Shown: positions 11,434-59,070, counted from the first letter of the stretch. The stretch: 64,000 nucleotides of DNA from Thermoanaerobaculia bacterium (GCA_035569395.1 DATMNC010000062.1:30591-94590), one strand, 5' to 3'. Translations and numbers: made by a program. Notes: a model not told the origin generated them from the letters alone.

Positions 11434-11571
11434 GGGTTGTCGGTTCTCGGTTATCGGTTGTCGGTGATCAATTGTCGGGCTCGGTGCGACTGACCGGCGT
11501 AAATTGGATGCAATTAATCGATCCGACCGACAACACGCGAAGCGCAATCAACGGACAACCGACAACGCGGC
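11434..11571. repeat. intergenic hairpin element, family A (GGTTGTC/GGTTATC heptamer arms; conserved end CCGACAACGCGGCGAAaCCGC)
   Basis: Left arm gggttgtcggttctcggttatcggttgtcggtgatcaattgtcggg; right arm ccgaccgacaacacgcg...caaccgacaacgcgg is its approximate reverse complement. Confidence 0.75.
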
Positions 11572-11581
11572 GAAACCGCAG

Positions 11582-12631
11582 TCAGTACCCCGCTCCGGCA
11601 CCACCGCCGCCGAAGGATTTGTCGGTGGGGCCGGAAGAGTCGGCGAGGTCGGGGCCGGTGTGCTCGTGCGAGGCGGGAGCGCTGCCGTGCGGGGCGACGC
11701 TGATGATGCCGCCGATCTGCATCGCTTCTTCGTAGCCGCTGCTCTGCACGGGGGTAACGACGAAGCCTCGGGTGGCGTTGCGCAGGGCGCGGCCGAGGGC
11801 GGCGGCGATGGCGGCGACGAGGACGCCGGCGGCGATCAGCTTGGCCTCGGTGGAGTAGTCGAAGAGGTCGCGCAACTCGATGGCCGCGCAGGCGATCGTC
11901 AGGACGGCAGAAACGAGGAGAACGCGGTTGCGCCAAAGTACGCCGCAGGCGAGAAGAACGATCGCGGTCGCGCCGAGGATGGCGATGATCGGGACATTCG
12001 CCTGTCCCGACCGTGAGATTGAGTGGACAAGGCTGGCCAGGTAGCCGGCCACCGGCATCACCAGCACCAGGCCGGCGAAGAGACGCTCGGTCGACGGCCG
12101 CTGCCAGACACGCTGCAGCGCGATCGTCGCGCCGATGGTCACGACGGAGGCGACAGCCATCGCCGAAAGCGGATCGTGCTCCCATTTGAACGCGACATAG
12201 GCGACCACCAGGATCGCCGCGAACACGCCGAAGAATGTGTTGCGCATCCTCCAGCCCGAGAGGGCCGCGGCGGCGGCGAAGACGAGGAGGGCCTCGACTT
12301 TCCCAGTGCTGGACAGACCGAAAATGAAGGCGAAGGTGCCCCAGATCCAGAGGCCCGACTCGATGCCGGTGCGGAAGAAGTGTTCCTTCCGGATCAGTAA
12401 CTCCGAGATGCCGATCGCCGCGGCCGCCGTCAGCAGGCCTTTCGGTAAAGAGAGAAGGGAAAGGAATCCGAACATCGCCGCCGTTGCGATCAAGGCCAGA
12501 ACGGTGAAGACGATGCGCAGCAGCAGCCCGTTGTGCCGCCACGCCGTCTCCGGCTTCGTGCCCGGCAGCAACTTCTGCAAGGCCTCGGCGCGCTCGTCAG
12601 CGACCGACGGTCCCGGAAACCAGTCGTTCAT
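11582..12631 (-). CDS. hypothetical polytopic membrane protein
   Basis: Start taken at MNDWFPGPSV (internal to longer ORF); multiple TM helices; Gly-rich C-terminus; stop/start overlap with upstream membrane gene. Confidence 0.55.
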   Translation of the reverse strand: MNDWFPGPSVADERAEALQKLLPGTKPETAWRHNGLLLRIVFTVLALIATAAMFGFLSLLSLPKGLLTAAAAIGISELLIRKEHFFRTGIESGLWIWGTFAFIFGLSSTGKVEALLVFAAAAALSGWRMRNTFFGVFAAILVVAYVAFKWEHDPLSAMAVASVVTIGATIALQRVWQRPSTERLFAGLVLVMPVAGYLASLVHSISRSGQANVPIIAILGATAIVLLACGVLWRNRVLLVSAVLTIACAAIELRDLFDYSTEAKLIAAGVLVAAIAAALGRALRNATRGFVVTPVQSSGYEEAMQIGGIISVAPHGSAPASHEHTGPDLADSSGPTDKSFGGGGAGAGY

Positions 12632-13542
12632 GCCGCCCTCCGCATCCGCGCGTGTGAAACAAAAAGACCGACGATAGCAGCGACGGTGGAGACGAGGAGA
12701 TAGAGGGCTATGAGAGCTTCGTCGCTGATGGCATGACAGACGACGATGTCGACGGCGATCGTTCCGTAGACCCAGGCATAGATGACGAATGTGGCTTCGC
12801 GTATGCGCCAGCCATGGAGCATCGAGGCGATGGCCAGAGCGATGGCGATGGCGCATCCCAGCAGCCGCGTCTCCTTGTGCACCGCCAGCGTCAGCGCGCC
12901 CCAGAAGGCGAGGTTGGCGGCGGCGTGATCGAAGAGAGAACTGAACGTCGTGTTACTCCGCACGGCCCGATCGACGACGCGCCAGACGATGACGACGGCC
13001 GCACAGACGAAGGCCCGGCCCGCGGTCGCGACCGGCGAGTCGAAGATGGCGTCGAAGGTTCGCCGCTCGATCCCGAGCCACGCGGCGAGCGACGCCACCG
13101 AGAGAGAGAGCACGAGGCGCGATTGGAAGATGTACGCCGTCACGGCATGCAGGAGGGCGAGAAAGAGGAAGTGCCGCGACCAGCTTTCGCCGAGGAGGTG
13201 GTAGTGATACTCGATGTAACCGACGTCGGCGCTGGCGAGGAGCGCGCCCAGAAGGAGGACGTAGTCGTCGACCAGCGCCGCCTGGCGGGCCTTTTTGTAA
13301 AACGACCATACGTAGCAGGCGATGGCGGCGATGCCGATGGCCGCGGCGATGGCCAGCGGGCCGATGTCGTCGAGATGTTTGGAGATGTAGAGCCCGACAC
13401 CCGAAACGATCAGCATCACGCCGGCCCAGGTCAACAGACGCAGCTCGGGATAGATGCTGACGACGTCACGGCGCTCGATGGCGATGAGACGGGCGGCGGC
13501 AGGGTCGCCGCTCGCGGTCAGCTCGGGTTCGAGGGAAAGCAT
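12628..13542 (-). CDS. hypothetical polytopic membrane protein (operonic with 11582-12631)
   Basis: Start taken at MLSLEPELTAS; about 8 predicted TM helices. Confidence 0.55.
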   Translation of the reverse strand: MLSLEPELTASGDPAAARLIAIERRDVVSIYPELRLLTWAGVMLIVSGVGLYISKHLDDIGPLAIAAAIGIAAIACYVWSFYKKARQAALVDDYVLLLGALLASADVGYIEYHYHLLGESWSRHFLFLALLHAVTAYIFQSRLVLSLSVASLAAWLGIERRTFDAIFDSPVATAGRAFVCAAVVIVWRVVDRAVRSNTTFSSLFDHAAANLAFWGALTLAVHKETRLLGCAIAIALAIASMLHGWRIREATFVIYAWVYGTIAVDIVVCHAISDEALIALYLLVSTVAAIVGLFVSHARMRRAA

Positions 13543-13553
13543 AGAGGGATTGT

Positions 13554-13637
13554 AATCCGCAGATGACGCAGATAAAGGCAGATAGAGGCCCGCTCGGATT
13601 CCTATCTGCGTTCTATCTGCGTCATCTGCGGATTGAC
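13554..13637. promoter_or_regulatory. perfect 21-bp inverted repeat AATCCGCAGATGACGCAGATA (43-bp spacer) in a divergent promoter region
   Basis: aatccgcagatgacgcagata...tatctgcgtcatctgcggatt; spacer itself contains ggcagatagag/ctatctgcg. Confidence 0.6.
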
Positions 13638-14499
13638 TTCCGTAGGCTACACTCGGGTTGTGATCCGTCTGCTTCGCCCGGCGCAGTGGCTGAAGAACGG
13701 GTTCGTGCTCGCGCCGTTGATCTTCTCGCGGTCGTTCACGTCGGCGAACGCGGTCCTCCACTCCCTGGCCGCCTTCGCCATCTTCTGCGGCGCGGCCTCG
13801 GCCGCGTACATCATCAACGACCTCTTCGACCGCGAGAGCGACCGCGCGCATCCGGTCAAACGTCTGCGGCCGATTGCGTCAGGCGAGATCTCCGCAAAGG
13901 CAGCAGTAACGATCGTTACGATTGCCATTCCCCTCCTTCTCATCGCCGCGTTCTTCGTCGCGCCGAAATTTCTGCTGGCCGTCGCTCTGTACCTCGTGCT
14001 GACGACGTTCTACTCCATCCGGCTGAAGACGATGCCGATCGTCGACCTCTTCGCCATCGCCTGCGGCTTCGTGCTGCGGGTGTGGGGCGGGGCGGTGGCG
14101 ATCGACGTGGTGCTCTCGGTCTGGATGTTCATCACCACCCTGTCGCTGGCGCTCTACCTCGCCGCGACGAAACGGCGCCAGGAACTCCTGACGACGACCG
14201 CCGCCGGCGGGTTCCGGGCCGTGCTGCAGCACTACTCCGTGGCGCTGATGGATTACTACTCCGGGATCGCCGTGGTGGCCACATTCGTCTTCTACGGTCT
14301 GTACATCGTTACCGTGCGTCCCCAGCTCGCCGCCACCGTGCCGGTGGTGTTGTTCGGCGTCTTCCGCTACCGGTACCTCCTGGAAATCAATCACGAGGAA
14401 TCGCCGACCGACCGGCTCGTGCGCGACCCGCAGATGATCGTCTGCGCGCTTCTGTGGGCGGCGATCGCGGTGCTCGTGCTCTACTTCGAGCCGTCGTGA
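13633..14499 (+). CDS. UbiA-family decaprenyl-phosphate phosphoribosyltransferase-like enzyme (DPPR synthase type)
   Basis: YIINDLFDRESDRAHPVKRLRPIASGEIS contains the N-D-x-x-D-x-x-x-D motif of 5-phosphoribosyl-transferring UbiA enzymes; 8-9 TM helices. Confidence 0.8.
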   Translation: MTSVGYTRVVIRLLRPAQWLKNGFVLAPLIFSRSFTSANAVLHSLAAFAIFCGAASAAYIINDLFDRESDRAHPVKRLRPIASGEISAKAAVTIVTIAIPLLLIAAFFVAPKFLLAVALYLVLTTFYSIRLKTMPIVDLFAIACGFVLRVWGGAVAIDVVLSVWMFITTLSLALYLAATKRRQELLTTTAAGGFRAVLQHYSVALMDYYSGIAVVATFVFYGLYIVTVRPQLAATVPVVLFGVFRYRYLLEINHEESPTDRLVRDPQMIVCALLWAAIAVLVLYFEPS

Positions 14500-16022
14500 T
14501 CTCCCGACCCAGAACCGCGAACGTCGTTTTCGCCGTGATCTTCGCGGCCTTCGCCTTCCTGCACCTCCACCGCATGGCCTCGATCTCGCCGACGTGGGAT
14601 GAGGGGACGGACATCGAGATCATCCACTGCCTGGCGTCGACGCACGATCCATTTGCCTGCCCCGACGACATCTCGCAGACGCGCCTCCCCTTCTACATTC
14701 ACGCCGCCGTCCTGGCGATCACGCCACGGATGGAGGCGCAGTACGCCGTCAGCTTCGTCGCCAGCGCTCTGACGCTGCTCCTGCTGTACGCCTTCGCGCG
14801 GCGTGAGTTCGGCGTGGCCGTGGCGACGATGACGGCCGCACTGTATGTCACCTCGCCCCAGCTCCTGGCGTCGGGACGGATGCTGCTGACGCACGCGAAC
14901 ATGCTCTTCACGCTGTTCACGACGGTCTCGTTTGTCGCGTTTTATTACGTGGTCTCGCGGTCTCGCGGTTTCGAGGTCGCGCGGTCCGCGATTTCCAAAC
15001 CGCGTGACCCCGCCACAACCCCGCTGCTCATCAGCGCCGTCGCGTTCGGATTGGCGACGTCGTGCTCGATCGTAGGCGTCTTCAACGGCCTCTTCATCGC
15101 CGTTTTCTATGCGGTGACGATCGGCCGCGAGCGGCGGATGTTGTGGCGCGACCTCCTCTTTCTGCCGGTGGCCGTGGCCACGTTTTTCGCGACATCGGTC
15201 ATCTACCTGAAGCCGAAGCTGCTCGTGGCGCTGATCCGCGCCTGTACGTTGCCAAAACCCTATCCGTTCTGGAACTACCTCGGGCTCGGATCGCCGTACG
15301 CGCCCTGGTACTTCTCGCTGGTCATCTTCGCGATCAAAATCGGGCCGTGGTGGCTGGCGCTGGCGGCGATCTGCTGGGCAATCTCACGGCGCCCCGCTCC
15401 ACGTACGACGCAGCGTGCCTTTCTCGCCGCAATCCCCATCAGCCTGGCCATCAACTTCGCGCTGAAGGGATTGGTCTTCCATTACGACGCGCCGCATCAC
15501 CAGGTGCAGTTCTATCCGCTGGTCTACCTCGTGATCGCCGCCGTTCTCCTCGGATACGAATTCCGGCGCCGCGTCTCCGCGCCGCTCGTGGCCGTCATCG
15601 CTGTCTGCTTCGCCCTGCAGCTCTACGACGTCGTCCGCTTCTTTCCGAACTATCTCTTCTACGGCTCGCAATACGGCGACCGGTTCATCGGCGAGTTCTA
15701 CGGACCGGCGGTCATGCACGCGCAGGACCGCGGGCCAGTGAATGCCTACATCGACCGGCTGCTGGCGCGCGACCCGAACGTGAAGATCCTGGTCGCCGAC
15801 AACAATGCGCTCGAACGGCCGGAACCGAATTTCGTCCTGTTCACGAAGCGGGATCCTTCGGTTCGCTATCAGTACGCGTTCGTCGATCGGTTGTACGCGG
15901 TGCATCTACAACTGCCGGAGAGGGATGCGTACAACGCGTATCTGGCGGCGAACTACGTGGATGACTACACGTACGACTTTCCGCCGGGGGTTTGGATGTA
16001 TCGGGTTCTGCGGCTCCGGTGA
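14495..16022 (+). CDS. GT-C fold membrane glycosyltransferase (ArnT/PMT, GT39/GT83-like)
   Basis: About 500 aa polytopic protein with N-terminal TM bundle and periplasmic C-terminal domain; GTG start overlapping the UbiA stop. Confidence 0.65.
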
Positions 16023-16172
16023 TCCGGAGAGTCCCATCCTGACGTGGAGCGAAGCGACCGTCAGGATCTCCGGTCAGGCCGCGCAGCCCCTGCCACTGGC
16101 AACTACCCAGCGGTCTAACCGGAGATCCTGACAGTGTCGCTTCGCTCCACGTCAGGATGAGGGTTTGGGGCC

Positions 16173-17126
16173 CTAGACGACATACGCCACCGCGAACCCC
16201 ACCTGAGCAGCCATCATCATCAGGTACATGTGCCGCCATGACGGATGGTTCTCGGTCGCGGTCAGCTCGTCGGGATTGCGGACGATGAGCCAGACGGTGT
16301 AGGCGCCCCAGAGCGACAGGGCGATGCCGAGGATCGTGAGGAACCGGGCGTTGCCGGTGAGGATGTGCGTGGCGGCGCCGAGGGGCATGAGCAGCCACGG
16401 GAAGATGAAGAACGGCGCGATCATCCAGGCGGCGCGCTTCACGCCGAAGGTGATCGGCAGGGTGCGGCAGCCGCCGGCCCGGTCGCCCTCGATGTCGCTG
16501 AAATCTTTCGTCGAGGCCGCGCCGAGGAGGAAGAGCATGAAGACCGAGCCAATGAACCATGGCTCCGCGGTCGTCGCGCTCGCCACCATCGTCCAGCCGG
16601 CCACCTTCAGGAGACAGCCGCGCGGGATGGCGATGGTCAGATTCGCGCCGATCGGATGCGCCTTCGTCCGTCCGAGCGCGGGGACCGAGTAGACGAAGGT
16701 CGAAATGAAGGCGATGAGGTAGATGGCGATGCATTCGTGGAGCGGCAGCGGCGCGAAGAACTTGGCGTGCCACGTGGTGTAGGGATAGACGACGACCAGC
16801 CACGTCGGCACCAGGCCGAGGACGTACATGATCCAGGTGAAGATCCAGGCGCCGCGGATCGACACCTCGCCGGTGACGATCGGCCGCTTCGGCTTGTTGA
16901 TCCGGTCGATCTCGAGGTCGTAGATCTGATTGAGTGAGTTGTTCGCCGCGTTGAGGAACGACGCGCAAAGCGAGCCGAGGACGATCGTCCAGATCACCGA
17001 CGACGTCAGCGCACGCGCCGGATCGGGATTGTGGGCCGATCCCCACGCGCAGACCGCTCCCGAAACGATGCCGAGGAGCGGTGGGAGGAGGGTGAACGGA
17101 CGGGCGAGGGCGATGTAGTGCTTCAA
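16173..17126 (-). CDS. UbiA-family prenyltransferase
   Basis: NNSLNQIYDLEIDRINKPKRPIVTGEVS (N-x-x-x-D-x-x-x-D) plus second Asp-rich motif KDFSDIEGDR; TTG start deduced just downstream of the hairpin element. Confidence 0.7.
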   Translation of the reverse strand: MKHYIALARPFTLLPPLLGIVSGAVCAWGSAHNPDPARALTSSVIWTIVLGSLCASFLNAANNSLNQIYDLEIDRINKPKRPIVTGEVSIRGAWIFTWIMYVLGLVPTWLVVVYPYTTWHAKFFAPLPLHECIAIYLIAFISTFVYSVPALGRTKAHPIGANLTIAIPRGCLLKVAGWTMVASATTAEPWFIGSVFMLFLLGAASTKDFSDIEGDRAGGCRTLPITFGVKRAAWMIAPFFIFPWLLMPLGAATHILTGNARFLTILGIALSLWGAYTVWLIVRNPDELTATENHPSWRHMYLMMMAAQVGFAVAYVV

Positions 17127-17143
17127 GGGGGGGAAGTGTATAT

Positions 17144-17312
17144 GCGGTTGCGCGGTCTCGGGGTTGCGCGGTCTCGGGGTTGCCCGGTCTCGGGGTTGCC
17201 CGGTTGCGCGGGGTTGTCGGTTATCAGTTGTCGGTTGCTGAGTTGCTGGGTTACGTGGTCGGGCCCGGCAGCCCGCCGCGAGACCGCGCAACCCCGCGAC
17301 CGCGAGACCGCA
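17144..17312. repeat. intergenic hairpin element, family B (GCGGTCTCG / GGGGTTGCG sub-repeats), in divergent promoter region
   Basis: Left arm is five or more tandem ggttgcgcggtctcgg units; right arm cgcgagaccgcgcaaccccgcgaccgcgagaccgc is the complement. Confidence 0.75.
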
Positions 17313-17360
17313 CTGGAATTGCTGTTCCCGTTCGGTGTTAGGCTGCTGGATTAACTGCAC

Positions 17361-18194
17361 ATGAACCGTAAGCCAAACTTCGACAACGATGCGGCCGAGG
17401 ACGACGCGAATGTCGGACCGCCACCATCGAGAAGCAGCATGAACGAAAGCAAAATCGCCCTTTTCATCGACTTCGAGAACATCGCCATCGGCGTGACCGA
17501 CGCGAAGTACAAGAAATTCGAAGTGAACCTCCTCCTCGAGCGCCTGCTGGAGAAGGGGAAGATCGTCGTCAAACGCGCCTACTCCGACTGGGACAAGTTC
17601 CCCGACTACAAGCGGGAGCTGCACGAGGCCGCCATCGAGCTGATCGAGATCCCGGGCCGCGTCTACTCGGGGAAGAACTCGGCCGACATCCGCATGGTCG
17701 TCGACGCCATGGACATGGCCTGGTCGAAGGATCACATCAACATCTTCGTGGTGGCCTCGGGGGATTCCGATTTCTCGCCGCTGGTCTCGAAGCTGAAAGA
17801 GAACGACAAACACGTCATCGGCGTCGGGGTGAAGAATTCGTCGAGCGATCTGCTGATCGACAACTGCGACGAGTTCATTTTCTACGAGGACCTCGTGCGC
17901 GGCACGAAGGCGCCGTCGAACGTGACCTTCAAGGACAAGAAGCAGGGCGAGGTCTTCAAGCTCCTGATCGACTCGATCAAGGCCCTGATGCGCGAGAACA
18001 AAGAGATCCTCTGGGGCTCGATGGTCAAGCAGACCATGCAGCGCAAGAAGCCGACCTTCAACGAGGAGTACTACGGCTACAACACGTTTAGCGACCTGCT
18101 CGAGGACGCGCAAAAGAACGAGATCATCAAGATCAAGAAAGACGTGAAGAGCGGGTCGTACGTGATCACCGGCTTCGCGCAGCCGACGCCGTAG
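17361..18194 (+). CDS. NYN-domain (LabA-like) protein with C-terminal OST-HTH/LOTUS domain
   Basis: KIALFIDFENIAIG...VVASGDSDFSPLV is the NYN PIN-like nuclease pattern; C-terminal region fits OST-HTH. Confidence 0.8.
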   Translation: MNRKPNFDNDAAEDDANVGPPPSRSSMNESKIALFIDFENIAIGVTDAKYKKFEVNLLLERLLEKGKIVVKRAYSDWDKFPDYKRELHEAAIELIEIPGRVYSGKNSADIRMVVDAMDMAWSKDHINIFVVASGDSDFSPLVSKLKENDKHVIGVGVKNSSSDLLIDNCDEFIFYEDLVRGTKAPSNVTFKDKKQGEVFKLLIDSIKALMRENKEILWGSMVKQTMQRKKPTFNEEYYGYNTFSDLLEDAQKNEIIKIKKDVKSGSYVITGFAQPTP

Positions 18195-18379
18195 AGATTG
18201 TCACTACTCCTCGCGCTTCCTCGTGGCGTAAATCCATACCACGAAGACCAGCAGCAGAAGACCGAAGAAGAGCGAGTGGGTGGCGGTGCTGACCAGTCTC
18301 ATCGCCGCGCGCAGAGCAAAGCCTCCGAACAACAGGGCCAGCATGGCGAGGATGGCGAGCTTGATGATGGTTGCGGATT

Positions 18380-18988
18380 TCAATCGACCGCGAGGATAGT
18401 CGATTCCGCGTCACTCATTGGATCGCGGCGACGTTGCGGCTTGCCATCCGGCGTGCTCTTCGGCAAGGCCGGGATCGTTTCGTGGACACCCTTGAGCCGG
18501 ATGGCGGCGGCGCGAAGGTACTTGCGCAACCATGGCGCGCGCGCGGCCGCGGCCTCGATGACATGCGAAACCGGCTCAAAAAGGCGAACGCGTATGGCGA
18601 CCTGGTGGTCGACGCAAAGAACGCTCGTCCGGGCGCCGAGGATCAGGCGGGATAGCGCGGCGACCTTGCGCCCGTGCACCCGGTCGCAGAAGACGACGAA
18701 TCGCGCCACGACGCCGGCGTGATACTCGGCCAGTCCGCGCGCAAAGATGAGGTTCTCCAGCGTAGTCATGGCGTGCTCTTCGAGGACGATCGTCGGCGCC
18801 GGCACGATGTCGCGCAGGTGCCCAGCCATGACCCAGGCCTCGGAATGATTCGATCGCGGAGACGTGCGGCCACCCGACAAGATCACGAAGTCGAGATTCT
18901 CACGGGCGATGAGCGGCGCTACCGATCTCACGTACCCGGGCAGGCCGTCGTTGAGATCGTAACCACAGACAATACCGACAGAACGCAT
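18380..18988 (-). CDS. DUF218 (YdcF/ElyC-like) domain protein
   Basis: DFVILSGGRTS...AMTTLENLIFA matches the DUF218 core. Confidence 0.7.
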   Translation of the reverse strand: MRSVGIVCGYDLNDGLPGYVRSVAPLIARENLDFVILSGGRTSPRSNHSEAWVMAGHLRDIVPAPTIVLEEHAMTTLENLIFARGLAEYHAGVVARFVVFCDRVHGRKVAALSRLILGARTSVLCVDHQVAIRVRLFEPVSHVIEAAAARAPWLRKYLRAAAIRLKGVHETIPALPKSTPDGKPQRRRDPMSDAESTILAVD

Positions 18989-19060
18989 CTCGCTAGCCCC
19001 CTGCTGCGCGATTTACGCCAGATGGAGGGTTACGAATGAGGTGCCGGGTTCGTTGAAGGC

Positions 19061-19144
19061 GGGTTTCTGGGTTGCTGGGTTGCAGAGTTGCTAGGGATTG
19101 GAAGAAACCCAGCAACTCAGCAACCCAGCAACCCAGCAACCGCG
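19061..19144. repeat. intergenic hairpin element, family C (GGGTTGCT sub-repeats)
   Basis: gggtttctgggttgctgggttgcagagttgctaggg...gaaacccagcaactcagcaacccagcaacccagcaacc. Confidence 0.75.
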
Positions 19145-20389
19145 TTACGACTGCACTGGACCCACGAGCACGGTCGGAACCATCGACCCCGCCTCGATCG
19201 CGGTGACACCGGTCTCGACGATCATGAGGCCGTTGGCCTGCACCATCGACGTCGATACCCCGGAGCCTTGCGAAATCATCGGCTGCGAGACGAGCTCGCC
19301 ATCCCGCGCCATGACGCGGGCGCGCATGTAGTTGCGGCGGTCGCCGCGCGATTTCAGCGGCGCCAATACACGCGTCTGCACGATCGGCGGCAGGAGGTTC
19401 GTCGTCTGTCCCATCGCTTTCCGGATCGCCGGCGCGATGAAAAGGAGGAACGAGACCAGACACGAAACCGGATTGCCCGGCAGCCCGAAGTAGAGCCGGC
19501 CGCGGATCCGCGAGAGGACCACCGGTTTGCCGGGCTTCATCGCTACCTGCCAGAACCTCGTCTCCGCTCCCAATGTATCGAGCGCCTCTTTGACGAAATC
19601 GTAAGCGCCGACCGAGACACCGCCGGAGGAGATGATGTAGTCGGACTGGAGCCCTGATTCGATCGCCGCGATGGTGGCCTCGGGGGTATCGGGCACGATG
19701 CCGACCATCCTCGGAACCGCCCCCGCTTCACGGATGAGCGCCGCGAGCGAGTAGGAGTTCGAGTTGACGACCTTGCCGTACGCCATCTCGTCGCCGACGT
19801 CGATGATCTCGTCTCCGGTGGAAAGGATGGCCACGCTCGGTCGCCGTCCGACGCGGACGACCGGCTTCTGAACACCGGCCAGCACACCGACCTCGGCAGC
19901 ATGAATCGGAGTCCCATCCGCAAGCACGATGTCGCCGGCGTGCATGTCTTCGCCGCGCCTGCGGATGTTGGTTCCGCGGCTCAAGGACTCGTTGACTGTC
20001 ACGATCTCCGAGCCGGCGTCGGTGATCTCGACGTGCGCGACGGTATCCGCGCCGTCCGGCATCAGCGCGCCGGTCATGATGCGAATCGCCGTCCCCGCCT
20101 CAACCCGTTTCGTCGCCACCGTCCCCGCGGGGAGGTTCTCGACGACACGCAACGACACAGGAGGATTGGCGATGTCGTCCGCCCGTACGGCATAGCCATC
20201 CATCGCCGTGTTGTCGCCGCGCGGCACATCGAAACGCGCACGCACGTCCTCGCGCAGCACGCGCCCGAGAGCGTCGGTGAAGACGACCTGCTCGGTACCG
20301 AGCAGTTGCACCTCCGCCAGCACGCGCTCCTGAGCCTCTTCGACAGGGATCATCCGCTCGCCCGGGCGGGAGGGTTGGAAGGTAGGCAT
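19145..20389 (-). CDS. moeA: molybdopterin molybdenum/tungsten transferase
   Basis: 414 aa with MoeA N-terminal, MoCF-biosynthesis and C-terminal domain pattern. Confidence 0.9.
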   Translation of the reverse strand: MPTFQPSRPGERMIPVEEAQERVLAEVQLLGTEQVVFTDALGRVLREDVRARFDVPRGDNTAMDGYAVRADDIANPPVSLRVVENLPAGTVATKRVEAGTAIRIMTGALMPDGADTVAHVEITDAGSEIVTVNESLSRGTNIRRRGEDMHAGDIVLADGTPIHAAEVGVLAGVQKPVVRVGRRPSVAILSTGDEIIDVGDEMAYGKVVNSNSYSLAALIREAGAVPRMVGIVPDTPEATIAAIESGLQSDYIISSGGVSVGAYDFVKEALDTLGAETRFWQVAMKPGKPVVLSRIRGRLYFGLPGNPVSCLVSFLLFIAPAIRKAMGQTTNLLPPIVQTRVLAPLKSRGDRRNYMRARVMARDGELVSQPMISQGSGVSTSMVQANGLMIVETGVTAIEAGSMVPTVLVGPVQS

Positions 20390-20418
20390 GAGGAGAGTTT
20401 AGCTGGAGTGGGGGTTAC

Positions 20419-20647
20419 ACGCGCGGAGGCGCGCCGGACAATCCAGCCCCGCGCTCGGCGCGGGGTTTGTGTATCGACCGGAATTGCGGCCGCGGAGGCA
20501 GCCGCTACAAAGTCGAACGATCGAGAGGATTCCGACGTATCCGGCGACGGTTTGTCGCGGCCGCCTCCGCGGCCGCAATTCCTGGCTCACGAACGTACCC
20601 CGCGCCGAGCGCGGGGCTGGATTGTCCGGGCGCGCCTCCGCGCGCGT
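20419..20647. repeat. MITE-like nested-palindrome element, copy 1 (outer ~47-bp inverted repeat, inner gaattgcggccgcggaggcagccgc inverted repeat)
   Basis: acgcgcggaggcgcgccggacaatccagccccgcgctcggcgcgggg...ccccgcgccgagcgcggggctggattgtccgggcgcgcctccgcgcgcgt; homologous copy at 42959-43200. Confidence 0.7.
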
Positions 20648-20712
20648 AACCGGCGGTGCTTCGCGGCGCCTTGGAACATTGACGACGCCGCGATAGCGGC
20701 ACAAAGAGGGTA

Positions 20713-20898
20713 GCCAGAGGTGCGAGCGCTTTTTGCGAGCACCTCTGGTCGTTGTGTGCGTTGAAATTGTGCCGCGTCAGCGGCACTGGATGAGTGAGAC
20801 GAATGACGATCGCGACGACTTCCGGTGCCGCTGACGCGGCACGAAATCCATAACGTCCGCTTCCAGGGGTGCTCGCAAAAAGCGCTCGCACCCCTGGC
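20713..20898. repeat. second nested-palindrome element (ccagaggtgcgagcgctttttgcgagcacctctgg hairpins at both ends, inner gccgcgtcagcggcac inverted repeat)
   Basis: Arms 20713-20750 and 20863-20898 are reverse complements and each is itself a hairpin. Confidence 0.65.
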
Positions 20899-20974
20899 TA
20901 TCGTCTTGTTGCCGCTATCGCGGCAAGACTCGCCGCTTCGCGTCGCCATCAATGAGGTGCGGCCGTATTGATGC

Positions 20975-24617: not shown

Positions 24618-24619
24618 TG

Positions 24620-24709
24620 CGGTTGCGGGGTCCCGAGGTTGCGCGGTCTCGCGGTTGTGTAGGGCGAAGAAACTGCGAGACCGCGTAACCGCGAGACCCC
24701 GCGACCGCG
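24620..24709. repeat. intergenic hairpin element, family B
   Basis: gcggttgcggggtcccgaggttgcgcggtctcgcggttgtg...ctgcgagaccgcgtaaccgcgagaccccgcgaccgcgc. Confidence 0.75.
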
Positions 24710-26546: not shown

Positions 26547-26625
26547 GTTATCGGTTGTCGGTTATCGGTTCTCGGTTGCGGCCACAACCCACAACTGACA
26601 ACTGACAACCGATAACCGACAACCA
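26547..26625. repeat. intergenic hairpin element, family A
   Basis: gttatcggttgtcggttatcggttctcggttgcgg / ccacaacccacaactgacaactgacaaccgataaccgacaacc. Confidence 0.75.
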
Positions 26626-26640
26626 ATTCGCGTCAGCGTC

Positions 26641-31372: not shown

Positions 31373-31469
31373 ACGCCTGCAAACGAATTCAACACTCTCG
31401 CCGTCCAATGCGTAACAACCGCACGGGAGGCATTGAATTATTCAATCCAGGACTTACGTTCGGATCGTC

Positions 31470-40291: not shown

Positions 40292-40360
40292 CGGTCGCGA
40301 GGTCGCGAGGTCTCGCGGTAAAACCCCGAGACCGCGCACCCCCGAAACCGCGAGACTGCG
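40291..40360. repeat. intergenic hairpin element, family B-like (GCGAGGTC/GGTCTCGCGG)
   Basis: gcggtcgcgaggtcgcgaggtctcgcgg...ccccgagaccgcgcacccccgaaaccgcgagactgcg. Confidence 0.7.
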
Positions 40361-42299: not shown

Positions 42300-42308
42300 C
42301 CGGCACGG

Positions 42309-42343
42309 CCGGCTGCGTTGGCTGCCCAAGGCTCCGCAACCAG
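42309..42343 (+). repeat. ~35-bp dispersed motif CCGGCACGGCCGGCTGCGTTGGmTGCCCAaGGCTC, copy 1 (immediately after cspA stop)
   Basis: Near-identical copies at 50898-50932 and 52154-52183, all on the + strand. Confidence 0.7.
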
Positions 42344-42584
42344 TGGCGCAAGAACGTTTCGGCTCTAGCTCTCGCCTGGCCCGAACCGCGCCATCACGCA
42401 GGCTCCGAGCGTGCCGCCGACGGCCAACGCGGGAAGGGCCGCCCCCTGTCCTTTGAGCGCAAGCACCAGCGCCGCAAGCCCGCCGGCGATGAGGATGAGA
42501 GTGCGCAACGCTACGTCCTGTAGATCGAATCGCATGACGTGGATACGGCGATTGGAGCGCCGTGAGGGTTATTGTACATGACTG

Positions 42585-42628
42585 GGGTTTGTTGCGGCGG
42601 GTTATCGGTTGTCAGTTGTCGGTTGCGA
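42585..42628. repeat. family A repeat, single arm
   Basis: ggggtttgttgcggcgggttatcggttgtcagttgtcggttgcg without an evident complementary arm. Confidence 0.55.
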
Positions 42629-42938: not shown

Positions 42939-42958
42939 CGCCAGCCCTGGGCCGGATG

Positions 42959-43200
42959 CGCGCGAAGGCGCGCTCAACAATCCAGCCCCGCGCTCGGCGG
43001 AGCACGAGCGCGGGGTAAGAAGTGTCAGCAATTTGCCGGCCGCGGAGGCGGCCGGGACAACCGCCCGGTTCGCGCGAGAAGCGAGATCCTCACAGCCTGT
43101 GGCAGCCGCCTCCGCGGCCGCACCTCAACATCCCATCGATACCCCGCGCCCGCGCTACGCCGAGCGCGGGGCTGAATTGGAGTGCGCGCCTCAGCGCGCA
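42959..43200. repeat. MITE-like nested-palindrome element, copy 2 (homologous to 20419-20647)
   Basis: Shares caatccagccccgcgctcggcg, gccgcggaggcggcc and ccccgcgc.gagcgcggggctgaattg motifs in the same nested arrangement. Confidence 0.7.
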
Positions 43201-43282
43201 ACCGAAATCTTCCCGTCGCGCGCAGAAATTAAAGGTTAGTAGTACAGAGAACCGAGAACCGACAACCCGGCGAAGCCGCGCG

Positions 43283-45244
43283 CTACATCCTCTCCGGCAC
43301 CGGAATCCCCAACAACCCGAGCGTCGCCGCCATCGTCTGACGAAAGACCTCGGCGCACACGGCGCGACGCTGGCGCTCGGCGGGGTCTTTCTCATTGAGG
43401 ATCGGATACTTGTGGTAGAAGCTGTTGAACTTCTGCGCCAGCACGAACAGGTCGTGCGTGATGATCGACAGCTCCAGCGCCTCGGTGGCGCGGCGGATCG
43501 CGGCAGGCAGCTCGGCGCTCAAACGCACCAGCTCCCACATCTCGTCGGTCAAACCTTCAGTGAGCGTCAGCTCGTCGAGTGAGGCGTCGTCGAGCCGTGC
43601 GTCGACGCCGCGCTCGGCCATCTTGCGGAAGATGTTCTCCACGCGGACGGTCGAGTACTGGAGGTATGGGCCGGAATCGCCCTCGAACGTCAGCGCTTCG
43701 TTGAAGTCGAAAGCGATGACTTTGTTGCGGCCGTACTTGAGCATGAAGTAGCGGAGCGCGGCCACGGCGATCTGGCGTCCGAGCTGTTCCGACTCCTCAC
43801 CGGTCAGCCCTTCGCTTCTCCCCTCGCGCACCGACTCCGCGGCTTTCGACTGCAACGCGTCGAGCAGATCGTCAGCCTTGACGCCCAGCCCCTTCCTGCC
43901 TGACATCTCGAGGTACGGTTTCTTCGCGTCCTCCTCGGAGACGTCGATTCCAAGGGCCTTCGCGGTAGCCGGTGTCAGTGCCACCATCTCGTACGAGAAG
44001 TGGATCGAATTCTCCGCCTCGCGGGGGTGACCGAGTTGCCGTACGCCTTCCTTGACGACTTTCTGCAGATAGGCCTGGCGCACGTCGATGACATTGACCA
44101 CTCTCTGCGCCCCGCCGAACCGTGGCGCGTCAGTTGAGCCATCGCCGCTCGTCGTTTCCCACAGCACATGGCCACCCGGGTATGTCGAGAACTTGCGGAA
44201 GTTGAAGGTGCGGTCGAGCAGACCGAACTTCCAGAGCTGATAAGCGATGTCCTTGCCGGTATAGGTGACGGTGCCGTTGGAGCGGACGAGGATCTTGTCC
44301 GGCTCGTTCATCCCTTCGAACTCGGCACTCTCGTCGAGCTTCATCACCCAGCAGTCTTTGTGCTTCCCTTCCGTTTCCTGGATGACGGCACCGCTGGCTT
44401 TCAGCAATTCGAAGGCCCGGTCCCAGAAGTGGAGCGTGATGATGTCGCTCTCTTTCGGCAGCAGGTCGTAGGTGATGCCGAGCCGCAGCATCGTAGCGAT
44501 ATGAAGTTTGACGATGGCCCGGGCGATAGTCGATGCGAATTCAAAGGTGTCGCCCTCGTGGCGTTCGATGTCGTGCAACGTGTCGCGCCGCCACTGTTGC
44601 GCCTCGGGATTCTCGGCGTAGTAGCCGGCCATTTTCGAGTAGACGTCCCAGCAGTAGTAATCGAAGCGCACACACGGGTCGTCGATCATCGCTTTGACCT
44701 CGGCCAGCGATTTCGGCTCGAGATGCCGGAAGGCGACGACGACGTCGGCAACCTGCACGCCGGTGTCGTCGATGTAGTTCTGCGTTTCGACGCGGTAGCC
44801 GAGCCACTTCATGCAGCGGACGAGCGTGTCGCCGAGGACGGAGTTGCGAAGGTGGCCGATGTGGGCGGCTTTGTTCGGATTGATGTTCGTGTGCTCGACG
44901 ATGACGCGCTCGCCGGTCGGTGAGGCCGGCGCCATCACACTGCGGATGTGCGCCGCGGTAAAGGCGCCGCGGTCGAAGCGGAAGTTGAGGTAGCCGGCCC
45001 CTTCGATGGTCACCGACTGCACGAACATCGGCAGTTGCAGGCCGTTGACCATCGCCTCGGCGAGCTCGCGCGGCTTGCGCTTCAGCGCCTTGGCCAGCTC
45101 CAGGCAAAGCGGCGTGGCCAGATCTCCCATCGCCAGGCGCGGCGGGGCCTGCAGAACGACGCGATCGATGGCGTGGCCGAAGAGCGTCAGCACGCGCGCG
45201 GTCAGTGTTTCGGTGAGTTGCTCGGTAATCTGTTCCAGGATCAC
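43283..45244 (-). CDS. argS: arginine--tRNA ligase
   Basis: 653 aa; class I HIGH-type motif NPNKAAHIGHLRN and C-terminal DALR anticodon-binding region. Confidence 0.9.
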   Translation of the reverse strand: MILEQITEQLTETLTARVLTLFGHAIDRVVLQAPPRLAMGDLATPLCLELAKALKRKPRELAEAMVNGLQLPMFVQSVTIEGAGYLNFRFDRGAFTAAHIRSVMAPASPTGERVIVEHTNINPNKAAHIGHLRNSVLGDTLVRCMKWLGYRVETQNYIDDTGVQVADVVVAFRHLEPKSLAEVKAMIDDPCVRFDYYCWDVYSKMAGYYAENPEAQQWRRDTLHDIERHEGDTFEFASTIARAIVKLHIATMLRLGITYDLLPKESDIITLHFWDRAFELLKASGAVIQETEGKHKDCWVMKLDESAEFEGMNEPDKILVRSNGTVTYTGKDIAYQLWKFGLLDRTFNFRKFSTYPGGHVLWETTSGDGSTDAPRFGGAQRVVNVIDVRQAYLQKVVKEGVRQLGHPREAENSIHFSYEMVALTPATAKALGIDVSEEDAKKPYLEMSGRKGLGVKADDLLDALQSKAAESVREGRSEGLTGEESEQLGRQIAVAALRYFMLKYGRNKVIAFDFNEALTFEGDSGPYLQYSTVRVENIFRKMAERGVDARLDDASLDELTLTEGLTDEMWELVRLSAELPAAIRRATEALELSIITHDLFVLAQKFNSFYHKYPILNEKDPAERQRRAVCAEVFRQTMAATLGLLGIPVPERM

Positions 45245-46782: not shown

Positions 46783-46798
46783 GATTGCAGCTTCGCTG

Positions 46799-46936
46799 CG
46801 TTGTCGGCTATCGGTTATCGGTTGTCAGGGCGCGATACGACGATTTCTCACGTTCCCGATCGCCGACGGCACCATATCAAACGATCGAGACGCTGAGACG
46901 AACCGACAACCGATAACCGACAACCGACAACGCGGC
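46799..46936. repeat. intergenic hairpin element, family A (arms about 37 bp, 64-bp spacer) in divergent promoter region
   Basis: gcgttgtcggctatcggttatcggttgtcagggcgcg...cgaaccgacaaccgataaccgacaaccgacaacgcgg. Confidence 0.75.
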
Positions 46937-47007
46937 AAAGCCGCATTCCCTCGAACCCTGCTACACTTTCGGCACTAGCGTTCAGCACCGCGGGAGGGGG
47001 CGGACCC

Positions 47008-48706: not shown

Positions 48707-48779
48707 GCGGTTGCGCGGTCTCGCGGTTGCGCGGTCTCGAAGTGACCGCGCGACTTCGCGACCACGAGACTCCGCAACC
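48707..48779. repeat. intergenic hairpin element, family B
   Basis: gcggttgcgcggtctcgcggttgcgcggtctcgaagtg / cgcgcgacttcgcgaccacgagactccgcaacc. Confidence 0.75.
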
Positions 48780-49496: not shown

Positions 49497-49650
49497 AGTC
49501 TGTTAACTGCCTCTGGAAGGCTATTAACTGCCTCTGGAAGGCTGTTAACTGCCTCTGGAAGGCTGTTAACTGCCTTTGGAAGGCTGTTAACTGCCTCTGG
49601 AAGGCTGTTAACTGCCTCTGGAAGGCTACTAACTGCCTCTCGGAGGCTGT
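49497..49650. repeat. minisatellite: 7 tandem copies of the 22-bp unit GCTGTTAACTGCCTCTGGAAGG
   Basis: Read directly; variants gctattaac, gcctttgg, gctactaac; sits between convergent genes. Confidence 0.85.
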
Positions 49651-49740
49651 TAAAAGCCGGGGGTTACGACCTCTCGCCGGCTCCGCCGGCAATACGTGCT
49701 CGTTCGCCGGTTCCGTTGATGACGGATATCCTTTCCAGTA

Positions 49741-50706: not shown

Positions 50707-50784
50707 TGGTCGGGGCAAGAGGATTTGAACCTCCGACCTCACGGTCCCGAACCGTGCGCTCTAACCAGGCTGAGCTATGCCCCG
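50707..50784 (-). tRNA. tRNA-Pro (anticodon CGG), CCA encoded
   Basis: Reverse complement folds as CGGGGCA/UGCCCCG acceptor, GCUC/GAGC D-stem, CACGG-UUCGGGA-CCGUG anticodon arm (CGG), GGAGG-UUCAAAU-CCUCU T-arm, discriminator A, CCA. Confidence 0.85.
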
Positions 50785-55347: not shown

Positions 55348-56709
55348 TTACGTTCGCCTTCGTCCCCACCGCCGGGCGAGACGCCCGTCGGGAGCAGGCG
55401 AAGACGCCCGCTCTCCTTTTTCGGCGCGAGCTCCGAGCGCCAGAAGAAACAGCGCTGGCGCGATCACATGCATCAGCAGCCGGTCAGCCGTTACAGCGAT
55501 CAGGTCGGATGCGACCCACTCCGTGGCGATATAGACGCCCGCGTAAACGGCGAGCATGGCGATGATGACGCTGATGGCCACCTTGGCCCCGCTGCGGTCG
55601 ACGCGCCACGCCAGCACTGCCGCGATGACGACAGCGATCCAGAAAAGGCCCCATCGCGGGAAGAGGAAGATGTGCGCCGGAAACGCCGCCAGCGCGTCGC
55701 CGAGGTGGTGCAGCTTCCGGAAAATCGTCGGAAGCTTGTGGAGGATGTCCTCTTCGTCGCCGGCGGGAATGCGCGCGCGCCAGACGAAGAGGGCCAATGC
55801 CGCGATCACGCTCGTAATCGCCGGAATCACAATCCGTTTACGAAAGACAAAGGCCCCGATGACGAGGAAGATGAGGGCGAACGGCAACCCTTCGCTTTTT
55901 GTCAGCACGAGGAACGCGAGCCACAAACCAAAGCGGATGGCGCGGTCTCGCGGTGATGAAGGAGCGGAGCACCCCGAGACCGCGAGACCGCGAGACCCCG
56001 CGACCGCATCAACCAGTTCGAAGAAGGCCCCTGCCGCAAAGGCCGCGAGCGCGATGTCGCTATAGGCCGACAGCGCGCCGCCCTCGGGTTCGACGGCGAA
56101 TTGCGGGATCCAGACCAGGAGCGCCGCACACCAGGCACCCGCCGTCGGAGAGACCATGCGGCCGATCCGTTCGCGCACAAGCAACGCGAAGGCAGCGAGC
56201 AGGCCGAGGTACAGCCAGCGAAGTTGACGGTCATCGGAATCGTGGGCGACACCGAAGATCACAGCGCCGTCGAGCGGGATCAGGATCGGATAGTGATTGC
56301 GCGGATCGAGCGTCGCACCGCGAAAGAACGGCCCGTCGATGGCGCGTTCCTGCGCGATCCCTTTCGCCTTCAGCACCCAGAACGCGCGGCCATCGAAATC
56401 GCTGAGCGGAGTGATTGCGGCGACGAAGGTTAGCGCGATGAGGGGAAGGCACATCAGGATTGTGGGAAGCAGGGGGTAGGGATTAGGTCGCCGGGTTGAG
56501 CGACGCAGTAGCTCCCACAACCCACTCCCCACGATCCAAACCCCGATCAACCCCAACGCAACAACCAATGGCACGTGCGCGACGCCGGCGAGAAAGAGGA
56601 GCGCGCCAACCAGACCGGCGCCGAAGAGAAATGCTTCGCCGATGCCGCGTCGTCCGAGGCACCAACCGGCGAGTGGGAAAAGGACGAGTGTGACGACGAG
56701 TCCGATCAT
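55348..56709 (-). CDS. polytopic membrane glycosyltransferase-like protein (GT-C/DUF2029-like); contains an in-frame family B repeat
   Basis: More than 10 TM helices. Nucleotides 55936-56005 (gcggtctcgcggtga...gagaccgcgagaccgcgagaccccgcgaccgc) are translated in frame as ...AVAGSRGLAVSGCSAPSSPRDRAIRF. Confidence 0.55.
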   Translation of the reverse strand: MIGLVVTLVLFPLAGWCLGRRGIGEAFLFGAGLVGALLFLAGVAHVPLVVALGLIGVWIVGSGLWELLRRSTRRPNPYPLLPTILMCLPLIALTFVAAITPLSDFDGRAFWVLKAKGIAQERAIDGPFFRGATLDPRNHYPILIPLDGAVIFGVAHDSDDRQLRWLYLGLLAAFALLVRERIGRMVSPTAGAWCAALLVWIPQFAVEPEGGALSAYSDIALAAFAAGAFFELVDAVAGSRGLAVSGCSAPSSPRDRAIRFGLWLAFLVLTKSEGLPFALIFLVIGAFVFRKRIVIPAITSVIAALALFVWRARIPAGDEEDILHKLPTIFRKLHHLGDALAAFPAHIFLFPRWGLFWIAVVIAAVLAWRVDRSGAKVAISVIIAMLAVYAGVYIATEWVASDLIAVTADRLLMHVIAPALFLLALGARAEKGERASSPAPDGRLARRWGRRRT

Positions 56710-57707: not shown

Positions 57708-58063
57708 CCTTCGCCGACCGAGACTACCTGATTGTTTTCGCCGAGCGCGACGATGCGCGGTCTGTGGGCGAGCGTCTGCCCCTCATGAAACGTGGCGAAG
57801 GCAACGATGCTGATGGTGTCGCCCACACGCACCGGCGCGCGCGCGCCGGTGTGAACGGCTACCTCCCCGCTTCCCTGCGGCGCCGGCTCGATCCAGGTAC
57901 GAAACCGTTCACCGGTGGCGATATTGATGACGTCGACTTCCTCGAACGGCAGGACTTCCGCGGCGCGCAGCACGAACGCATCCACCCGCAACGCCACCGG
58001 CCAAAGCGTGGCGGCACCGGTGACGACGGCGTTCTGGATGACGGCGTGAAGGAGAGTACGCAT
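57704..58063 (-). CDS. panD: aspartate 1-decarboxylase
   Basis: MRTLLHAVIQNAVVTGA...GSG... pyruvoyl-dependent PanD pattern, 119 aa. Confidence 0.9.
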   Translation of the reverse strand: MRTLLHAVIQNAVVTGAATLWPVALRVDAFVLRAAEVLPFEEVDVINIATGERFRTWIEPAPQGSGEVAVHTGARAPVRVGDTISIVAFATFHEGQTLAHRPRIVALGENNQVVSVGEG

Positions 58064-58120
58064 GATCTGCGGCTTCGCCGCGTTGTCGGTTGTCGGTTGA
58101 CTGCGCGGCGTTTTTTGGCC

Positions 58121-58969
58121 TCAGGCACGCGCAATTCGTATGTTATCAATCAGCCGCGTCCGTCCGATTCGTACCGCGCCGACGAGAAGGAGGTCGCGCC
58201 GGAGATCAGCGGGCGGCAGAAAGGTCTCCGGATCGACGACGGTGAGGTAATCGATCTCGATTCCGGGCCTCTTCTCGATCATCTTTCGCATCAATGTCTC
58301 GATGGCGCTCACGTCCCGGATGCCGCGGATGACAGCCTCTTCTCCTGCCCGCAGTGCGCGATACAGCGCCGGCGCGAGTCTTCGTTCGTCCGGAGACAGA
58401 TAGCTGTTGCGCGACGACAACGCCAGGCCGTCGTGCTCGCGCGCGGTCTCGGCGAAGATGAGCCGCACCGGGACATCGAGATCGCCGACCATCCGATCGA
58501 TCACCGCGCACTGCTGGGCGTCCTTCCGTCCGAAGACGGCCAGATCGGGCTGGACGATGTTGAACAGCTTCATCACGACCGTGGCCACGCCATCGAAGTG
58601 TCCGGGGCGCCGTTCGCCTTCGAGGGGCATGGCCACGGCTCCGGCCGACACCGTCGTCTGTGAGCCCGGCGGATACATGATCCCGACCGACGGCAGAAAG
58701 AGGAGATCGACGTCTTTCCCCGTCAACAGCTCCTGATCGCGCGCCTCGTCGCGCGGATAGCGCGCAAAGTCTTCATTCGCGCCGAATTGCTTCGGGTTGA
58801 CGAAGATCGAGACGACGATGAACTCCGCGCCGGCCTCGCGCGCTGTGTCGATCAGCGAGAGGTGACCTTCGTGGAGAAAGCCCATCGTGGGGATGAAGGC
58901 GATGGTCTTGCGCGAATCGCGCGCGCGGGCGATCGCTTCCCGAGCTAAAGAGATCGTGGTTGTTGTTTG
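58121..58969 (-). CDS. panC: pantoate--beta-alanine ligase
   Basis: IAFIPTMGFLHEGHLSLI (HIGH-like motif); start taken at MQTTTTIS downstream of the family C repeat. Confidence 0.9.
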   Translation of the reverse strand, partial: QTTTTISLAREAIARARDSRKTIAFIPTMGFLHEGHLSLIDTAREAGAEFIVVSIFVNPKQFGANEDFARYPRDEARDQELLTGKDVDLLFLPSVGIMYPPGSQTTVSAGAVAMPLEGERRPGHFDGVATVVMKLFNIVQPDLAVFGRKDAQQCAVIDRMVGDLDVPVRLIFAETAREHDGLALSSRNSYLSPDERRLAPALYRALRAGEEAVIRGIRDVSAIETLMRKMIEKRPGIEIDYLTVVDPETFLPPADLRRDLLLVGAVRIGRTRLIDNIRIARA

Positions 58970-58974
58970 CATGG

Positions 58975-59070
58975 GTTGCTGGGTTGCTAGGTTGCTGGGT
59001 TGCTCGATGCCGTAGCAGGGCTTTGCCTCACCCAGCAACTCAGCGACCCTGCAACCCAGTAACCCTCATT
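58975..59070. repeat. intergenic hairpin element, family C
   Basis: gggttgctgggttgctaggttgctgggttgctcg...cccagcaactcagcgaccctgcaacccagtaacc. Confidence 0.75.

Follow-up and report, generated by a model that had tools for sequence, protein, structure and literature searches.

Dispersed heptamer repeats have been known in cyanobacteria since 1990 and were later described in Xanthomonas and the Beggiatoaceae. According to a secondary summary, heptamers are in excess among long simple sequence repeats (SSRs) (Mrazek 2007). The intergenic heptamer repeats of Xanthomonas (GGGAATC) and Nostoc (GGGGAYT) include, in each genome, 70-75 pairs that are inverted (Rehm et al. 2015, PMC4692102), and the Xanthomonas GGGAATC pairs are always convergent, with one array on each strand (Rehm et al., PMC4692102). 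These Xanthomonas inverted arrays are the closest precedent for the hairpin elements described here, which are scattered over a 64,000-nucleotide stretch of DNA (termed the window when taken as a whole) from a Thermoanaerobaculia bacterium (GCA_035569395.1, DATMNC010000062.1:30591-94590). The reading that we favour, with about even confidence, is that these elements are dispersed palindromic microsatellites, similar to repetitive extragenic palindromic (REP) sequences and bacterial interspersed mosaic elements (BIMEs), and that they spread as arrays of units in an uncultured soil Thermoanaerobaculia lineage. The nearest genomes as judged by PGK (72-77% identity) are uncultured Thermoanaerobaculia, phylum Acidobacteriota, and homologues of another protein of the window are labelled likewise. 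Planctomycetes, which had been suggested as the source by the ECF-sigma genes and the starts lacking Shine-Dalgarno motifs, were rejected on the grounds of the PGK relatives and of protein names.

A first-pass annotation of the window, whose base composition is about 63% G+C, had listed 16 copies of three hairpin families, A, B and C. All 16 exist, at most a few bases from where they had been placed. In each hairpin, a G-rich unit of 7 or 8 nt is repeated in two arrays that converge on a centre specific to that copy, and the G-rich arm therefore lies 5' on both strands. When motif counts were judged against dinucleotide shuffles of the window, all three family motifs were found to occur far above expectation: 27 occurrences of motif A (GGTTRTCGGTTRTC) against 0.06 expected, 24 of motif B (GGTTGCGSGGTCTCG) against 1.03 and 24 of motif C (GGTTGCTGGGTTGC) against 0.38. 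Tandem repeat analysis (TRF) of the arms gave periods of 7, 8 and 10-11. Hairpin lengths range from 59 to 326 nt, arm complementarity from 72 to 100%, and folding of each copy predicted a hairpin with a free energy (dG) of -33 to -158 kcal/mol. The statement that nearly every intergenic gap carries such a hairpin was too strong, since a strong one is found in about half of the gaps of at least 50 nt: the minimum free energy z-score was below -3 in 17 of 35 such gaps (below -2 in 22), as compared to one of 35 coding controls. Unit types other than A, B and C are also present in the window, namely GAAGGAT, GGCAGAA and GCAGATnnnn. Window positions 3438-20691 are matched by contig k141_3269781 (L001) of an independent ENA assembly (ERZ27253680) over 17,254 bases with three mismatches and no indels; this copy includes hairpins A1, B1 and C1, so that an assembly artefact can be dismissed. 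The mismatches, three in all, are C-to-G changes at window positions 18026, 18035 and 18044, spaced exactly 9 nt apart inside an NYN-domain gene.

[quoted passage not shown] This is contradicted by their unique loops, their range of lengths, their mosaic structure and their replacement at orthologous sites without target-site duplication; A, B and C are unit types that mix, rather than discrete elements. Within a family the loops show no similarity, each copy having its own, and the content shared by the loops of A1 and A3 is limited to a weak match to one 21-bp unit. Mirror-symmetric mosaics were observed with B units outside and C units inside, C outside and B inside, A outside and C inside, and B outside and A inside. 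The conserved terminus attributed to family A holds for five of its seven window copies, where it is the exact pattern that was used for scanning, and fails for A2, which has no such module, and A4, in which a degenerate stub, GCGGCGGG, is all there is of it; apart from the phase of their units, B and C lack a terminus. A further common property is polarity. As in an arrangement of convergent arrays with the G-rich strand first on each strand, G exceeds C in the 5' arm of 52 of the 56 hairpins that were detected and, counted by unit type, in 20 of 23 (p = 5e-4). A palindrome reads alike on both strands, so this G-first polarity is a true property of the elements and not an artefact of orientation. 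By analogy, the convergent Xanthomonas pairs may be read as having the same polarity. The rule might have arisen because a C-rich 5' arm, on which Rho would load, is avoided whichever way the site is transcribed, or it might stem from the process that makes the arrays.

Comparison with related loci was based on a detector that recognizes two arms, each an array of 6-9-mers, and on a metagenome scan with the family A terminus as pattern, which was the source of most of the additional loci and yielded orthologues about 90% identical in nucleotide sequence. The terminus was found in more than 117 soil metagenome stretches, and among the loci fetched 51 contain B units and 24 contain C units. That specific units are shared by many loci and by many metagenomes argues for copying, and the earlier preference for amplification over independent origin is thus upheld. 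Tandem units of 5-11 nt recurring at many intergenic loci, and polymorphic in number between relatives, are what characterizes long SSR and heptamer families, and both features are found here. Indels of 7- or 8-nt multiples make up 7 of 37 inside arrays but 30 of 507 elsewhere (Fisher p = 0.009), orthologous copies of A6, like those of A7, are a single heptamer apart, and the in-frame copy B6 varies in unit steps. At the A3 site of L127 and L187 the aligned blocks lie about 840 nt further apart than in the window, which we read as extra 21-bp copies. Variant units are partly mirrored between the two arms. When unit indels were inspected for such mirroring, which would point to copying from one arm to the other, none of the few available cases showed it.

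Gaps of the window were compared with the same gaps in relatives (Table 1), one of which, L199, is a 6.64-Mb contig of a relative with 83% protein identity. At such sites hairpins, single arms and empty gaps alternate, and one unit type is exchanged for another. In two contigs whose flanks are 97% identical, one site is occupied by a family A element of 210 nt in the first and by an unrelated sequence of 35 nt in the second. No target-site duplication was found at hairpin indel junctions among orthologues, and the comparisons of filled and empty orthologues yielded no clean empty site for a whole hairpin, replacement being seen instead. Over a wider range, hairpins with 6-9-mer arms were detected in 5 of 80 PGK loci across bacteria: those of the three closest relatives (L002-L004), of one Thermoflexales metagenome-assembled genome (MAG) and of one other Chloroflexota MAG. 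Their units (e.g. GGCAGCA, GATGAGT, GAACGAT, GAGGACT, AAGGATG, GGGATTT and GAGTTAT) are unrelated to A, B and C. The GAPDH-PGK-CYTH-NTP transferase synteny is conserved among the PGK relatives; in L003 hairpins flank PGK on both sides, as in the window, but are made of other units, and in L002 there is no gap between GAPDH and PGK.

Table 1. Hairpins, single arrays and MITE-like insertions, with the state of the same site in related loci. Positions are those of the window unless a locus is named.
Feature	Position	Strand	Structure and placement	Gap	Same site in relative
A1, family A hairpin	11416-11581		GGTTGTC/GGTTCTC/GGTTATC heptamer arms; right end CCGACAACGCGGCGAAACCGC adjoins stop codon at 11582		
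Extra hairpin, absent from first-pass list	13555-13636 (approx.)		GCAGATnnnn 10-11-mer arms; divergent gap; z -7.3		
Single-arm B-type array	14944-14995	+	GGTCTCGC x5; within coding sequence of 508-aa gene		
B1, B-unit hairpin	17143-17312		divergent gap; 5' side B, then A units (17212-17237), then C-like (17234-17252)		
C1, GGGTTGCT octamer hairpin	19061-19141		end 1 nt from MoeA stop codon		
B2	24619-24708		B hairpin; occupies gap from CYTH stop to NTP-transferase start	NTP transferase/CYTH	L127: GGCAGAA hairpin instead
C2	25275-25362		C hairpin; occupies gap from PGK stop to CYTH start	CYTH/PGK	L127: GGCAGAA hairpin instead
A2, heptamer hairpin	26547-26627		without GC terminus	PGK/GAPDH	L127: 11-nt gap, hairpin absent
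B3, B-unit hairpin	31195-31381		begins 1 nt past stop codon		L187: copy with internal tandem duplication
A3, family A arms and GC termini	32391-32716		enclose 11 copies of 21-bp repeat (32413-32642)		
Three A units	33594-33616	-	within N-terminal part of PTPS gene		
B4, short B-type hairpin	40290-40357		begins at amidohydrolase stop codon		
A4, single-arm A array	42590-42627	+	degenerate terminus stub only		
A5, single arm and GC terminus	43246-43283	-			L101: runs on into further modules
A6, family A hairpin	46783-46948		divergent gap	iPGM/DUF4177	L120: family A too, one-unit indels, diverged loop
B5	48707-48779		from TGA stop to ATG start	orf486/CobAdoT	L120: C-type hairpin instead, likewise flush with TGA and ATG
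B6, B-type hairpin	55936-56008		in frame inside membrane-protein gene 55348-56709(-)		
A7, single arm and GC terminus	58065-58101	+		PanC/PanD	L199: single arm, one heptamer more
C3	58973-59065		family C; exactly occupies gap from PanB stop to PanC start	PanB/PanC	L199: family C
Extra hairpin	59969-60050		GAAGGAT heptamer arms	dNK/PanB	L199: GTRGRTTN octamer hairpin; non-coding flanks conserved
Extra hairpin	60731-60810		GGCAGAA heptamer arms; divergent gap	M16/dNK	L199: single GGCAGAA array only
65-83-nt MITE-like element	42300-42364				
65-83-nt MITE-like element	L127 7141-7224				
65-83-nt MITE-like element	L139 8806-8882, 7362-7452				
65-83-nt MITE-like element	L187 12100-12179				

The elements are confined to places in which a hairpin leaves genes unbroken. 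With the pipeline gene calls and Pfam labels, which for 7.8-64 kb were obtained by exact-protein look-ups (JGI soil metagenome 3300050821; ENA ERZ27253680), 12 lie between tandem, five between divergent and one between convergent genes, so that all three arrangements reported earlier do occur, and one lies inside a gene. The intergenic location thus holds for most copies and not for B6, which is in frame within a 453-aa membrane protein. Its segment (residues 234-258) is missing from the more distant of 16 aligned homologues, relative to which it is an insertion, and is variable among the close ones, including an LATSQPRD x3 form that corresponds to 24-nt steps. Of 11 tandem gaps, nine have a hairpin that starts 0-4 nt past the upstream stop codon; in five tandem gaps it ends 0-4 nt ahead of the next called start, one of these starts (the open reading frame (ORF) after A3) being a doubtful gene call. 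B2, B5 and C3 occupy the whole gap from stop to start and leave no room for a Shine-Dalgarno motif. The hairpins mark gene boundaries in a poorly annotated phylum, and they can mislead both start-codon calling and ORF prediction.

The hairpins are neither terminators nor promoters. That they are not simply terminators had been argued from gene orientation, and the positions within operon-like gene strings, flush with stop and start codons, point the same way. The intrinsic type would require a GC stem followed by a U-tract, and no T-run follows the arms, which are also found in divergent gaps; neither the terminator nor the promoter scan of the window reported any hairpin. Canonical terminators with hairpin and T-run are present in other gaps of the window (36423-36452, 37725-37744 and 50693-50671). 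On the non-gene strand of the PanC/PanD gap (58064-58120), the A7 arm folds into a small GC hairpin with T6 directly after it, and would act there as an intrinsic terminator for antisense transcription; L199 keeps a weaker version. A scan of the window against Rfam 15 at gathering scores matched no hairpin, the sole match being one tRNA (50710-50784).

Positions of this kind also suit an account in which the hairpins are RNA structures selected by the host, with candidate roles in processing by RNase III, in protecting 3' ends, in insulating or coupling translation, or in termination independent of a U-tract, while their sequence is free to drift or be replaced. This would explain why hairpins are kept at the same gaps across relatives despite sequence replacement, and why they start within 4 nt of stops and end a few nt before starts that lack Shine-Dalgarno motifs; stems of 21-40 bp would suit RNase III. 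Yet the sense fold was the more stable in only 8 of 23 tandem gaps, and the antisense strand exceeded the sense strand by 29 G-U pairs, a test that is weak for near-perfect palindromes because these fold almost equally on either strand. Given the lack of a sense-strand preference, we did not adopt RNA function as the principal explanation. It also has to contend with copies in divergent gaps and inside a gene, with orthologous gaps that are empty or of zero length, so that the structure is dispensable, and with the missing U-tracts in a window that has canonical terminators elsewhere, and it does not account for arms made of tandem units of a few shared types. We consider it unlikely. Regulation of neighbouring genes by protein-binding iterons or by two-tetrad G-quadruplexes (G4s), for example in arrays of GGTTGTC or GGTTGCGC, appears highly improbable. 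GG-only tracts make weak G4s, the paired C-rich arm would compete with G4 formation, and the many unrelated unit types at the same site in close relatives argue against one sequence-specific factor, no neighbouring regulator being common to the loci. The points in its favour are that the G-rich units start with GG, that several share a GGTTG core, and that the related GGGAATC units form G4s in vitro (PMC4692102). The arms could also arise at breaks: a gap would break, for instance at a hairpin tip, G-rich units would be added to both 3' ends and the ends would be joined head-to-head. Such scars are predicted to have G-rich arms 5' on both strands, unique junction loops and mosaics with old units outside and new ones inside, and to be rewritten repeatedly at one site. 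No candidate repeat-adding enzyme or template was seen, however, and the partial mirroring of variant units suggests copying from arm to arm rather than independent synthesis. We know of no such system in bacteria and regard break repair as exceedingly improbable. There is a slim chance that hairpins are written, and not transposed, by an activity that rebuilds the gap between two genes again and again: it would extend arrays of G-rich 7-8-nt units outward from either flank, or insert such units at the tip of a hairpin already present, and then join the two arrays head-to-head. This would explain the G-first polarity, the unique loops, the mirror-symmetric mosaics and the exchange of unit types at a fixed site and, if true, would give a mechanism for the spread of the heptamer families STRR (short tandemly repeated repetitive sequences), GGGAATC and TAACTGA.

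It is distinctly unlikely, in our judgement, that whole hairpins are non-autonomous mobile elements of three families A, B and C, whether REPINs moved by a REP-associated tyrosine transposase (RAYT) or MITEs moved by an insertion sequence (IS) transposase. Part of the earlier REP/MITE-like assignment does stand. The family A terminus is a GC mini-palindrome (GCGGC-nnn-GCCGC) that can fold alone in a clover form, and the family A module forms BIME-like chains in metagenome loci, such as GTAGCT-GCGCTTCGCGC-GTTGTCT-GCGGCTTCGCCGC-GTTGTCGGTTGTCT-GCGCGCTGCGGCGCGC. A GT[AG][AG]CT head is found 0 or 18 nt outside the terminus (searched up to 45 nt upstream) in 27 of 114 family A copies versus a background of 1.3%, i.e. 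enriched about 18-fold at fixed distances, and is missing from most window copies. Terminus and GTRRCT head are REP/BIME-like, and unit type A might be mobilised by a Y1 (RAYT-type) enzyme. The part that fails is that of discrete elements with fixed ends, and the REP-like mini-palindrome is restricted to family A, none being found in B, C, GAAGGAT or GGCAGAA units. As previously noted, the window holds no RAYT-like gene, no ORF with the HUH/Y motif having been found. Extending the screen (an HUH...Y..N/Q regular expression, with the match confirmed by Pfam) to 965 kb of loci revealed one Y1_Tnp gene (PF01797, 30.9 bits) in the related contig L119, but its flanks carry a different palindrome, which occurs three times in 199 loci and not at all in the window; neither the window nor these 965 kb contained a RAYT with A, B or C units at its flanks. 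This L119 gene (7307-8170, minus strand) encodes a RAYT-like Y1 transposase and has a partial paralogue at about 8220-9100, and a palindrome, GCAGGCATCCTGCC, stands after both. Mobility could further be seen in the insertion of B6 into a gene and in the single arms, which resemble decayed doublets in the manner of REP singlets (PMC3116915). REPINs, however, are doublets with a conserved spacing and spacer, whereas lengths here vary from 59 to 326 nt within a family around unrelated loops, with unit types mixed in mosaics. MITEs would show the terminal inverted repeats of an IS and a target-site duplication; at orthologous sites we observed replacement without duplication or clean empty site. 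An element of 65-83 nt in the same loci (GGCCGGCACGGCCGGC...GCGCAGRCTCC) is by contrast present or absent at orthologous sites and has a CTAG/CTGG target duplication of 3-4 bp; this element, other than the unit-array hairpins, is a true MITE-like insertion. Whole-element transposition fails on spacing, loops, target duplication and cognate transposase, and is possible for family A. The A terminus and the B doublet had no match in 2.9 million viral contigs.

Dispersed palindromic microsatellites, the reading that we favour, would form as follows. Unit arrays, and not whole hairpins, would be copied between non-coding sites, a spread that is itself observed. The whole-unit gains and losses seen between relatives would result from replication slippage. 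A single array could then become a hairpin whose arms are kept complementary by inverted duplication or template switching, as in quasipalindrome correction. New unit types would accrete inside or outside older ones and produce mosaics, and loss of the older arms would give an apparent replacement, in an order of events that we can only propose. Elements would persist only where a hairpin is harmless, with few bases between a stop and the next start or in an in-frame protein loop, and would then be co-transcribed as intercistronic stem-loops. They might conceivably benefit the host, for example by protecting mRNA 3' ends as described for REP sequences. Several points weigh against this scheme. 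It names no mechanism of copying, and the unit-number indels, which have no mirror image in the opposite arm, do not demonstrate template switching from arm to arm. The A termini with their GTRRCT head look like the ends of a defined element, so that at least type A may move as a unit. As most of the additional loci were fetched with the family A pattern, copy counts and the co-occurrence of units are biased. Finally, distant relatives have hairpins of unrelated sequence in these same gaps, a recurrence that selection for structure would also explain.

Other repeats were observed in the same loci. Two different 21-bp tandem arrays occupy 32413-32642 (inside A3) and 49500-49653, and a further array lies at 4446-4725. 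The array at 49500-49653 is missing from L120 along with the whole 430-nt gap, differs by 64 nt in a JGI contig and recurs in another context in L119 (11260-11500). A nested palindromic element of about 250 nt (CCGGACAATCCAGCCCCGCGCTCGGCG...) is found at 20390-20974 and 42953-43204 of the window and at 10300-10560 of L119; the 585-nt gap at 20390-20974 has a dG of -427 (z -29), and a JGI contig ends within the copy at 42953-43204. A further family of dispersed palindromes is based on CACAGACAnnnnTGTCTGTG and has 29-nt arms with 97% complementarity; it is represented at 63470-63586 and in L100, L107, L132 and L141. At 16023-16172, between convergent genes, there is a 150-nt near-perfect palindrome without sub-repeats (dG -108, z -12). 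In L199, a 612-nt gap (14313-14924) consists of units of about 21 nt (CACCGGCGGATTTTCGCGAnn) in two opposed blocks forming one giant hairpin (dG -319), where the window has 50 nt. Positions 1-7800 of the window, in which the ENA contig stops at 3438, have a lower G+C content (0.55-0.60) and carry TIR-domain, HTH and antitoxin-like genes, resembling an accessory or defence island.

Among the known systems, pneumococcal BOX elements, which vary in how many internal modules they contain, fold into hairpins, and Rickettsia palindromic elements insert in frame into genes, resembling copy B6. Both have defined ends and a conserved internal sequence, unlike the present arrays, with which, to our knowledge, they share no sequence or unit similarity. 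The hairpins have in common with REP, BIME and REPIN sequences that they are extragenic palindromes, with inverted doublets forming long hairpins, mosaic clusters, placement just past stop codons and singlets that are likely remnants (Bertels and Rainey 2011, PMC3116915), and the family A module resembles REP in being a short GC palindrome with a conserved head. They differ in that their arms are variable numbers of tandem 7-8-nt units instead of one fixed palindrome of 20-40 nt and, from REPINs, in that neither spacing nor loops are conserved and no RAYT flanked by these units was found in the loci searched. With the cyanobacterial STRR and the Beggiatoaceae TAACTGA repeats (MacGregor 2015, PMC4679880) they share the occurrence of one heptamer in tandem at many intergenic loci, often adjoining start codons, a patchy taxon distribution and the lack of an evident spreading mechanism. 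Those repeats are mainly direct arrays, with one inverted case in Beggiatoa, whereas here inverted pairs dominate and several unit types coexist.

The likeness to Xanthomonas GGGAATC is closest: both are G-rich heptamer arrays, mostly intergenic and found between aligned, convergent and divergent genes, with repeat lengths that differ among related species, no link to IS elements and an unexplained function. Unlike the Xanthomonas arrays, those described here comprise many unit types in one genome, including 8-mers and 10-11-mers, form mirror-symmetric unit mosaics, exchange unit types at a fixed site between close relatives, include one unit type with a REP-like GC module and reside in an Acidobacteriota host. 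With its coexisting unit types, mosaics, polarity, site turnover and in-frame copy, this lineage offers a richer test case for the unexplained spread of one short heptamer to hundreds of intergenic sites, and the many near-identical genomes in soil metagenomes together with the 6.6-Mb contig of a relative make it possible to trace directly how hairpins are born, grow and are replaced. The elements are thus a multi-family, mosaic form, with fast turnover, of a bacterial repeat whose kind is known but unexplained, and they occur in a phylum that has been little studied.

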